From positions 39,446 to 103,445 of IMG/VR virus record IMGVR_UViG_2974549561_000001: a DNA stretch of 64,000 bases; one strand, 5' to 3'. The number at the start of each line of letters is the position of its first letter. Position 1 is the stretch's first letter. Position numbers: made by a program. Below, piece after piece: positions 15,301-18,300 of the stretch. This DNA is from a virus. Taxonomy: Duplodnaviria > Heunggongvirae > Uroviricota > Caudoviricetes.

Positions 15301-18300
15301 TCACCAATGCCATTTTCGGTACCAATGAGTTCCGGGCGTCAGATTATGAGATCACCACAGCACAGTTTGGCACCATTGGCATTTACAGCAATAAAGCCGA
15401 GATCAAGCAGGCAATGGACTCAGCAAGCGCGCGCATCGCAGCAGAACGGGAAGCCAATCTGAATCATGCAGTCGCCGCGCTGACTCAATCGTGGGTAACA
15501 GCAATCAGGGAGGCCGCCACCACAGGGAAAATCACACCTGCAATAGCGGATGTCGTAAACGACGGCTCTAAATTTATGGATGCCTATCAAATGGATGCGG
15601 TGAAGTTGCCATCAGCCTATGGTCAACTCAGCTATCGCATGACCTACAACCTGGTATCAATGTTTTCCGACCTTGCCATCCTTGGGCTGGTGGATCTTAA
15701 CGAGGTTACGCCGGAATTGCTCAGCATGCGCAAGAATCATGTGGAGATATTGCAGAGAATTAACACGGTTCTTGCTGGGCGCACCGATGAAGAGAAACAG
15801 GCCGACGCTGATCGGATAAACCTAGCCCTTGGCAACATCACGGAGGAAGAGATTGCCGCCAGAAACGAGAAACAAGAAGAGTTATCATCAATACAGGGTG
15901 ATGCCACCAGCATAGCTCAGTCTCTTGGTCTGAATTATCGCGTATCCACCGCCGACCTGAAGATGATGTACGCACCAAAATTCGCCGCTGGCGAGGTATT
16001 TGGGCTTCAGGAAGCCTCAGGCATGAAAGGCGTTCTTTTCCGTGCGAAAGACGCAATCAAGGCGAAATTCGGCGCTCGCTGGCTGCCAGCGAAGGCGAAG
16101 AACAGCGATTTCCCGGGTAACTGGTGGATTATCGAGACAAAACACAACGTGGCGGACGTTCTGGCCGTCATCCAACAATACGCATAACAGGAGCGCCCGG
16201 TTCGCCGGGCGTCGCATAATATGGCCACACTATCTGATACAATAAAACCGAATAAAACATATCTTGAGGCGGTACTCCGTACAGCGTTGTTAGGAAAGAC
16301 AGAAGACGAATACGTTGATTTCTTCCTGTCAGGGCTACGCGGGCGATTACTGAAAAATCCCCGCCTGTACCGCAGCTATGGTCCATACTGGCCGGAAATT
16401 AAAAAATTATTACTGGAGCGCGGTTATGGTAATTTCGGTCGTCTCGTTGACCGTGACGTTCGCAAAATTTACCGTTATGACCGCCCGGCGCTAACACTCA
16501 TAGCCGCGACGCTCTACAGCCAGGAGCGTTTTGATAATGGTCAGATATACTCAGCCTGGCATTTACTGCCAGTGCCTGAAGAAGTTGACGACCAGGACTA
16601 TGAGTTTGAGTCTTACGATTTGGAAGTTGAAGCCTTGGCACAGGCTGGAGAGAAAACTTGAAAAAGCGATACTACACAGTAAAGCATGGGACGCTACGAG
16701 CATTACAAGAGTTTGCTGATAAGCATAACGTTGAGGTGCGCAGGGAAGGGGGAAGTAAAGCTCTGCGCATGTACCGTCCGGACGGGAAATGGCGTACGGT
16801 CGTCGATTTCAAAACTAACAGCGTTCCCCAGGGCGTCCGCGACCGGGCATTCGAAGAATGGGAGCAGATCATCATAGATAACGCATTGCTCCTGAATGCT
16901 GATTAAATCTTTGGCTATGCCTGGCTAAGCCAGGCATAGGAATTTACACAGTATCAATGTGTCTGCTAAGGAATCTCCCGAACTGATTTGTTGACCCAAA
17001 ATAGTTAGGATAAGCCTTTTTAAGAGATTTAATGTTGTTAGTGGCAAGCAGCACCGCAATTAATACTTCAGGATCCGCATCATCCTTATTAAGTTCCTGG
17101 AGGGCTTGTTCCGATTCTTTTTTCCTAAAAGGTTTCACAGAAACAAGAAACTTTCCAGTATCCTTGCCATTTTTTGTTATGGCGTTTCTCATCCTCACCA
17201 AAAAGAATCCATTATGGTTTTTGGGCAGGCTTTTCTTTAGGTTTGCATCTGATGTCAGCTTCATTGCAAATGTATATGTACTTAATTTTGAGCGAACAGA
17301 TAAAGCCTCCTCCAATGTTTTAAGCTCTGTTTGATAATTTTTGATGGTTTCATCATCAAGAATACAGGCACCTTCATCATGAGCAACTAGGCATCCAGAA
17401 AGATAAAAAAATCTTCTCCACTCAGGGTGACCTTCATTAGAAGTTTTCAGCTTAATATTTTCAAGTGTATCTATTATCTCCAGACTTGTTGCCCAAGCAT
17501 GTTGGAGTTCTGTTCTTAGTTGTACTTCGATTTTAGTTTTACTCCACGGATTGTTACCGTTTTCTTCATCAAAACAACTATATGCAAGGTGAATGCCACT
17601 ATATCCGCTTGGCTTTGGAGTTAAATAGTCATATTCCTTTAAGATTTTATGCTTGGAGCGACTTTTAACTAGTCGGTCTTTTAGTTTCTTTAGTTGTTCG
17701 ATGTTTCTAACTATAGCTCTACATCCGCCAATATCCTGCATTCTAGTAAGGGCTATTGCATTATTTGTTGCGCCGCCGTCAAGACTTGGACGCTCCAGTT
17801 TATCAATTATTGTGCTAAGTCTTTTTAGGCGTCTTGCAACAATAATCTTATTCTCTTTATCAACTTTTTTTGCAGCCCTATCAAGATGATTTTTCATTAG
17901 CATCAATGGATATAAATGAAGCTCGCGGAAATTTTGAATCATTTTAATTGCTTCTTCTCGCTCTGCGCCCTCACAACCATGTCTAATTTTTCTGGCTGCT
18001 TTTTCTATTTGAGATTTCGAATATTTAAGCTCGCATTTTTGGCTTTGATATACTTCACTGCCCATTACTAACATCCAGTTCAAATGATTAATGTGTTGTT
18101 ACATATAATAACAAATCAAGCTAGAAATCAATGGGTATGAAAATGAAACATACCCATAATGTTACCTAACGTAACTATTATAAATAGTTCTGTTTACCTG
18201 TTAATTCTCCTTGCGGCACTTGTTTTTGCGTTAGTGTTTGAGTTCCGCGAATTATGTTAATCAGGGGACTTAGTAATGATGGTTCCTGATGGGCCTCAAC

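Follow-up and report, generated by a model that had tools for sequence, protein, structure and literature searches.

An SJ46-type P1-like phage-plasmid with a CapRelSJ46 cassette in the res-mod position between mat and lxc

The DNA analysed here, called the window throughout, is a stretch of 64,000 nucleotides from a virus of the Caudoviricetes (IMG/VR record IMGVR_UViG_2974549561_000001, positions 39,446 to 103,445). It belongs to a P1-like phage-plasmid, and this report deals with the interval between its genes mat and lxc, where P1 carries the restriction-modification genes res and mod and where the window carries a single gene, capRelSJ46. A sequence-only reading of the window had proposed that res-mod is missing, that a different defence gene stands in its place and that the interval is a swappable slot.

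Genes and borders of the mat-lxc interval

The window was compared by BLAST with the P1 reference sequence (NC_005856), relative to whose map it is reversed. Three collinear blocks were identified, pairing P1 1-2615 with window 30283-27669, P1 2609-3468 with 19036-18178 and P1 9749-20000 with 16907-6656, at nucleotide identities of 93-98.6%. The P1-like (Punavirus) backbone genes cre, c8, ref and mat on one side and lxc, ulx, darB, prt, pro, lyz and ssb on the other are collinear with those of P1. The conserved flanking order put forward in the sequence-only reading was found outside the interval, but it is interrupted on the mat side by a transposon.

As the block matches end there, P1 3469-9748, which comprises res, mod and an insertion sequence (IS), IS5, and measures 6.28 kb between the mat and lxc stops, is replaced by window 16908-18177. 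The gene order of NC_005856 (mat 2716-3468, res 3544-6456, mod with an IS5 inserted at 7652-8846, lxc 9750-9998) places res and mod between mat and lxc in P1. The window interval (16907-18177) has 1,271 bp and is bounded by the stop codons of lxc and mat, so that both the absence of res-mod and the proposed length of about 1.27 kb were borne out. Its guanine-cytosine (GC) content is 37% overall and 0.33-0.40 locally, compared with about 0.50 in the flanks. It holds one plausible gene, again as proposed, and the remaining open reading frames (ORFs) are short, nested and on the opposite strand. The interval corresponds to the P1 hot-spot RD-1 as defined in PMC6906374, reaching exactly from the mat stop to the lxc stop, with low GC content and with contents that differ between P1-like elements. 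In the window, darB (9420-16187), ulx and lxc lie on the plus strand, and the cargo ORF and mat lie on the minus strand (Table 1).

Table 1. Features of the mat-lxc interval and its surroundings (window coordinates)
Feature	Position	Strand	Description
ulx	16221..16661	+	backbone, P1 anti-restriction operon; collinear with P1 9995-10435, about 98% identity
lxc	16658..16906	+	backbone, C1 repressor modulator; corresponds to P1 9750-9998; stop codon forms the right-hand slot border
GC-rich hairpin (lxc side)	16915..16939	.	stem of 11 bp, loop of 3 nt; lxc and capRel converge on it
capRelSJ46	16944..18065	-	fused toxSAS toxin-antitoxin, 373 aa; N-terminal toxSYNTH (RelA_SpoT), C-terminal pseudo-ZFD antitoxin/sensor
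capRel 5' leader, possible promoter region inside the cassette	18066..18130	-	AT-rich, GC about 0.33; putative
Hairpin (mat side)	18131..18157	.	stem of 9 bp, loop of 9 nt; 20 nt past the mat stop
Sigma-70-like site	18177..18204	-	TTAACA-16 nt-TATAAT, 11/12 matches; overlaps the mat stop and points into the cargo
mat	18178..18846	-	backbone, maturation control; corresponds to P1 2799-3468, 93% identity; stop codon forms the left-hand slot border
Tn1721/TnAs1-type transposon	19037-27668		8.6 kb; mat on one side, the greater part of ref with c8, cre and cra on the other
tnpA	19068-22034		Tn3-family transposase, in the transposon
tnpR	22038-22598		resolvase, in the transposon
CTX-M family beta-lactamase gene	25669-26544		annotated blaCTX-M-27 in identical plasmid records

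The cargo gene

The long ORF of the interval spans 16944-18083 on the minus strand, and its real ATG at 18065 gives a product of 373 aa. This product was identical in 373 of 373 residues to PDB 7ZTB chain A, CapRelSJ46 (E = 1.4e-250), and in 372 of 372 positions to PDB 9ERV, which substantiated the proposal of a different defence cargo. The Pfam domain RelA_SpoT (PF04607) was detected at residues 79-193 with 50.5 bits (cut-off 27), and the PADLOC model PDC-S33 matched over the full length (7e-87). Residues 1-373 are those of the crystallised protein, and the interval contains no separate antitoxin gene, as is characteristic of a fused system. Owing to the complete identity with 7ZTB, the catalytic residue Y155 and the sensor residues L280 and L307 are present, and no residue differences from 7ZTB were found in the catalytic or sensor regions.

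CapRelSJ46 originates from Salmonella phage SJ46 (Zhang et al., Nature 2022, PMC9712102). Its C-terminal pseudo-ZFD autoinhibits the N-terminal toxSYNTH domain. When an infecting phage makes its major capsid protein, the new protein binds to the pseudo-ZFD and sets the toxin free; for SECPhi27 this trigger is Gp57, which was both necessary and sufficient for activation (PMC9712102). The activated protein pyrophosphorylates tRNAs, by which translation is blocked and the infection aborted. The Y155A exchange abolished activity, substitutions of L280 and L307 led to lost or reduced sensing, and native expression was achieved with 100-200 bp of upstream DNA in a promoter-less vector (PMC9712102). 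Capsid-triggered tRNA pyrophosphorylation and protection against phages would be expected of the window gene as well, through the identical protein (PMC9712102).

The surroundings of the gene are also known. Window positions 12000-30500 (18.5 kb) are 100% identical to the Salmonella plasmids NZ_CP064676, NZ_CP031191 and NZ_CP064673, each of 103.4 kb, and the window matches the description of SJ46 with a Tn1721-blaCTX-M-27 insertion between mat and ref (PMC5241659). On the basis of this identity and this description, the window was assigned to an SJ46-type P1-like phage-plasmid and represents the native locus of the published defence system.

Prevalence of the cassette

DNA of ulx-lxc was present in 699 of 5,426 complete Escherichia coli genomes. 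The CapRelSJ46 cassette was found in only 14 of these 699, in 15 places, all of them on plasmids and none (0 of 15 in the 5,426 genomes) on a chromosome. The gene is therefore accessory and not part of the conserved backbone, as the sequence-only reading had it. EcoP1I-like DNA occupied 58 plasmid places among the same 699 genomes, whereas the SIR2 and DUF2971 cargoes described below were found in 133 and 62 complete E. coli genomes, respectively; both CapRelSJ46 and the canonical P1 res-mod are minority alleles of the slot. In PLSDB, the cassette occurred in 22 of 699 ulx-lxc-bearing records. A search of the INPHARED phages in distant mode gave no exact match and a single record at 70% identity (vB_EcoM-673R5, which bears a second CapRel allele), and for this reason the plasmid collections were searched. 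Among the matches listed, the cassette was never found outside the ulx-lxc context.

Two of the copies deviate from the intact form. In E. coli strain MEW (H58, NZ_JCATIJ010000003.1 82036-83963), the match to the cassette is broken in two, and an IS1B-family transposase is annotated beneath it, suggesting that IS1 has inserted there; in AP024695.1 (H44), the best place covers no more than half of the cassette. Both look like decayed copies.

Contents of the slot in P1-like elements

To tabulate the cargo at the mat-lxc junction, 80 IMG/VR loci (the best 80 hits to Mat) and two genome loci encoding Mat were fetched, and the interval was extracted and clustered from 79 elements with both borders located, including the window, P1, vB_EcoM-673R5 and MH445380. 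A Mat scan of GTDB representative genomes gave only two loci and added little. The slot fell into 14 sequence clusters and was either empty or filled with one of about nine different gene contents. Experimentally proven defence systems are encoded by EcoP1I res-mod (10 loci) and CapRelSJ46 (8 loci, window included). Matches to candidate defence families in PADLOC were obtained for a SIR2_2 protein of 434-435 aa with two alleles (11 + 3 loci), a DUF2971 protein of 346 aa (9 loci, PDC-S31), a PIN_12 protein of 316 aa (5 loci, partial match to PDC-S34) and the JukA-like member of a 3.5-kb block that further comprises a lipoprotein, ANT/KilAC and HTH (3 loci). No PADLOC match was obtained for a GNAT protein of 201-202 aa with two alleles (5 + 5 loci), a pair of YaaC-like and nucleoside-deoxyribosyltransferase-like (NDT-like) proteins (3 loci) and a lipoprotein of 135 aa (3 loci). 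The second CapRel allele occupied 4 loci, and the slot was empty in 9 + 1 loci, with about 33 nt between the mat and lxc stops and a single GC-rich hairpin inside. The GC content of all cargoes is low (0.35-0.43).

The second CapRel allele has 378 aa (L055:10664-11931; also L057, L065 and L002) and is about 74% identical to CapRelSJ46 (residues 1-200, 79%; C-terminal sensor region, 64%), a pattern that would fit diversification of the sensor. In phage vB_EcoM-673R5 it is split by a frameshift.

Examples of cargoes with a partial or no PADLOC match are L027:10670-12367 (YaaC and NDT-like), L022:3407-4295 (GNAT of 202 aa), L053:10670-11713 (PIN_12) and L072:10546-11250 (lipoprotein of 135 aa), and these four types are candidates for new defence or competition genes. 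A more far-reaching idea is that the mat-lxc slot is a true defence hot-spot, in which the GNAT, YaaC and NDT-like, lipoprotein, PIN_12 and DUF2971 cargoes would be new anti-phage genes or genes of inter-element competition. They would be swapped as alleles, through homologous recombination, within the roughly 13% of complete E. coli genomes in which an element of this kind occurs; this is put forward tentatively, as a possibility about which we are somewhat more doubtful than convinced.

Hairpins and promoter-like signals

Both hairpins that the sequence-only reading had placed at the ends of the interval proved to be real at these positions. The lxc-side hairpin has folding energies of -20.2 kcal/mol on one strand and -19.5 kcal/mol on the other (z about -4.4 to -4.5), and the mat-side hairpin reaches z = -4.1 and -4.7; in either case, 0 of 200 shuffled sequences folded as well. 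A hairpin just after the lxc stop is present in 12 of 13 non-P1 slot variants, with -12 to -25 kcal/mol and variable sequence. Several of these have GCCCGG/CCGGGC arms in common, and the empty44 variant has exactly the hairpin of the second CapRel allele. P1 is without it, as the mod promoters occupy the position. The window hairpin is probably the local form of a conserved lxc terminator that would act in both directions and also end the convergent capRel transcript. Among the slot variants, only this cassette has the mat-side hairpin, and even the second CapRel allele is without it; it may serve to terminate mat or belong to the capRel leader. A consensus scan of 16600-18500 called neither hairpin a canonical intrinsic terminator, because neither is followed by a T-run, and since the scan flagged neither of them, their function in termination is something we infer.

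The sigma-70-like site at the mat stop has a good -10 hexamer in three cargoes that are co-oriented with mat (CapRelSJ46, SIR2 and YaaC) and a poor one in the opposite-oriented EcoP1I and PIN_12, and also in GNAT and the second CapRel allele. That it serves as promoter of the cargo is speculative.

Exchange of the cargo

At the lxc side, the border of the slot is sharp, and homology to every other slot variant begins at the lxc stop codon. At the mat side it is fuzzy: the last 15-125 nt of mat vary between cargo types, two types have an alternative mat 3' end, and the 3' 100-150 nt of mat are mosaic between slot variants. Inspection of the junctions of all variants by eye, with no repeat-finding tool run, revealed no direct repeats or target duplications. 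Near-identical backbones, with flanks only 0.1-0.2% apart, bear different cargo; in the 4-kb right flank, an empty and a SIR2 element differ by 0.125%, and a SIR2 and an EcoP1I element by 0.175%.

The most informative pair is formed by the window and the E. coli plasmid p1-T-HYM1 (L087, NZ_CP141768.1 65517-85145), which has the same Tn1721-blaCTX-M-27 insertion but SIR2 in the slot. On the mat side, 33 of 37 mismatches between the two fall within 18183-18793, in mat, and only 4 occur over the next 12.2 kb including the shared transposon; on the lxc side, 62 mismatches are spread across 11943-16855. The pattern looks like that of a tract of at least 6.9 kb transferred by homologous recombination, in which the cargo would have travelled with pieces of mat, lxc, ulx and darB; one end of the tract falls in mat, the other within darB or further on. 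It does not appear to be the pattern of a site-specific cassette. Together with the variety of contents in the 79 loci and the near-identical backbones with different cargo, this pair supports the proposal of a swappable slot.

We consider it highly probable that the window is an SJ46-type element with a 1.27-kb low-GC CapRelSJ46 cassette in the res-mod position, that homologous recombination in the flanks accounts for the exchange of cargo and that the hairpins are punctuation. Co-resident P1-like elements would swap their cargo by recombining within the conserved genes that flank it, namely mat at one border and lxc, ulx and darB at the other, with no site-specific or transpositional movement of the cargo itself, and both hairpins would be ordinary transcriptional punctuation, one as shared terminator of lxc and capRel and the other as mat terminator or capRel leader structure. 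Several points weigh against this interpretation. The darB-side end of the tract lies at or beyond the limit of the p1-T-HYM1 DNA that was compared, and which cargo replaced which is not readable from two sequences. The promoter and terminator scan of 16600-18500 was no richer than shuffled sequence (4 against 4.4 expected; 3 against 2.0), and the 79 loci are a convenience sample and not an unbiased census. In addition, this particular element is known here from its sequence; that its prophage expresses capRel is a presumption, and any effect on P1-type superinfection or on induction of the element itself would be hypothetical.

It might be argued that the cassette moves as a discrete unit with the hairpins as its recombination sites, comparable to integron attC sites or the substrates of hairpin-recognising transposases, given that strong hairpins lie about 8 nt and 20 nt inside the two borders and that these are sharp at the lxc and mat stop codons. 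The two hairpins are unrelated in sequence, however, and the one at lxc is found even in empty slots and shares its GCCCGG/CCGGGC arms across different cargoes, which makes it a property of the site and not of the cargo, whereas the one at mat is missing with other cargo types. The junctions lack visible repeats, the interval encodes no recombinase, the only mapped exchange breaks hundreds to thousands of bases outside the slot, and the cassette was seen neither on a chromosome of the complete E. coli genomes nor, among the matches listed, away from ulx-lxc. A role of the hairpins as recombination sites was rejected on the grounds of their unrelated sequences, the site-bound nature of the lxc-side hairpin and the breakpoints in the flanks, and a mobile unit of this kind is regarded as extremely unlikely.

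Two further explanations concern the function of the gene. A post-segregational killing module that stabilises the phage-plasmid in place of res-mod, and is not primarily directed against phages, would be in keeping with CapRel being formally a toxin-antitoxin system and with res-mod being counted among the addiction systems important for stable maintenance of P1 (PMC6906374). Post-segregational killing needs a separate antitoxin that decays at a different rate from the toxin, however, and this cannot happen when a single polypeptide holds both; the identical protein protects against phage with a capsid protein as trigger (PMC9712102), and the slot is empty in 10 of 79 loci and hence dispensable for maintenance, which leaves plasmid addiction very unlikely. 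An ordinary small alarmone synthetase (SAS) that makes (p)ppGpp or (p)ppApp and serves lysogenic conversion or a stress response is suggested by public annotations ("RelA/SpoT domain-containing protein" or "(p)ppGpp synthetase") and by weak similarity to the SAS structures RelP, RelQ and YjbM (E = 1e-4 to 1e-7). This similarity to housekeeping enzymes is limited to about 120 residues, and the identical protein pyrophosphorylates tRNA in vitro and inhibits translation upon capsid binding, like the toxSAS FaRel2 and PhRel2 (PMC9712102), so that the probability of an alarmone function is close to negligible.

Relation to known systems

Neither the gene nor the interval is new, and the earlier reading of the locus is essentially correct. 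CapRelSJ46 of phage SJ46 (PDB 7ZTB; PMC9712102) is the same protein in the same type of element with 18.5 kb of identical surroundings, and no difference was detectable. RD-1 of P1 (3,469-9,749; PMC6906374) has the same borders at the mat and lxc stops and the same low GC content, with res-mod replaced by other ORFs, and in pTZ20_1P a "putative phosphokinase" was described at this position (PMC6906374). That study compared three plasmids and did not treat the region as a defence hot-spot, whereas 79 loci, empty sites and a recombination tract are described here.

EcoP1I, the type III restriction-modification (RM) system of P1, occupies the same slot in the same general role, protection of the lysogen against other phages, but it consists of two genes in the opposite orientation over about 5 kb and cleaves DNA, whereas CapRel is a single 1.1-kb gene that blocks translation, and the proteins are unrelated. 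PhRel/ATphRel (Gp29/Gp30) of mycobacteriophage Phrann and the toxSAS FaRel2 and PhRel2 belong to the same toxSAS family, act by tRNA pyrophosphorylation and are prophage-encoded; they are two-gene systems with a separate antitoxin, which is fused in CapRelSJ46. The defence hot-spots of P2 and P4 (Rousset et al. 2022) resemble the slot in their fixed position between conserved phage genes and their interchangeable, low-GC cargo of mostly one or two genes, which is anti-phage there and may be so for most of the contents of the slot. They are likened here by concept only and belong to another phage family, whereas the slot lies on a phage-plasmid.

A 2025 preprint reported type III RM, dGTPase, PrrC and CapRel systems in P1-like phage-plasmids. 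Phage-plasmid papers of the Rocha laboratory and the UK Health Security Agency give the defence systems of P1-like elements (type III RM and CapRel among them) but not their mat-lxc position, and our literature search turned up neither a tabulation of the mat-lxc slot as a defence hot-spot nor a map of exchange tracts. The slot catalogue is only a modest addition. The finding as a whole mainly gives context: it places a textbook defence system in its native setting, as a minority allele of a multi-allelic slot, and it documents a probable exchange of defence alleles by homologous recombination between phage-plasmids that carry extended-spectrum beta-lactamase genes. With its sharp borders, empty state and single-gene cargoes, the slot is also a cheap place to seek new defence genes.

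Neighbouring features of the element

Apart from the genes listed in Table 1, the transposon contains a PAS/mcp fragment, a TonB-receptor fragment and an IS5-family (IS903-type) transposase. Its insertion point corresponds to P1 2609-2615, as the two P1 blocks on either side overlap by these 7 bp, and it sits 22-28 nt before the ref stop codon, leaving ref short of its last few codons.

The sequence-only reading had listed IS1 together with res-mod as missing from the interval. IS1 is indeed absent from the window, but in P1 it lies at its own locus about 13 kb away from the mat-lxc interval, at 22626-23393 between isaA and isaB, and the IS inside the res-mod interval of the P1 reference is the IS5 in mod (strain mod749::IS5). 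P1 22532-24245, with IS1 and isaB, is replaced by 31 bp in the window (3421-3451). Already in the study of Venturini et al. 2019 (PMC6906374), res-mod (RD-1) and isaA-IS1-isaB (RD-2) were separate hot-spots.

Differences from P1 were also seen in the backbone. Compared with the annotated 250-aa form of P1, Mat shows a 1-nt frameshift after about codon 36 (window 18820-18935), and its true start is probably the ATG at 18819 (MDKKICVV, 213 aa), as annotated in MH445380. An in-frame TAG was found in darB at 13914-13916 (codon 1499), where 68 related loci have TTG; among the related loci, only IMG/VR locus L004 has the TAG in common with the window, and the codon may shorten the anti-restriction protein DarB here. 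In the isaA region, an extra 684 bp (4231-4914) result in two ORFs (3452-4234; 4241-5086) where P1 has isaA.

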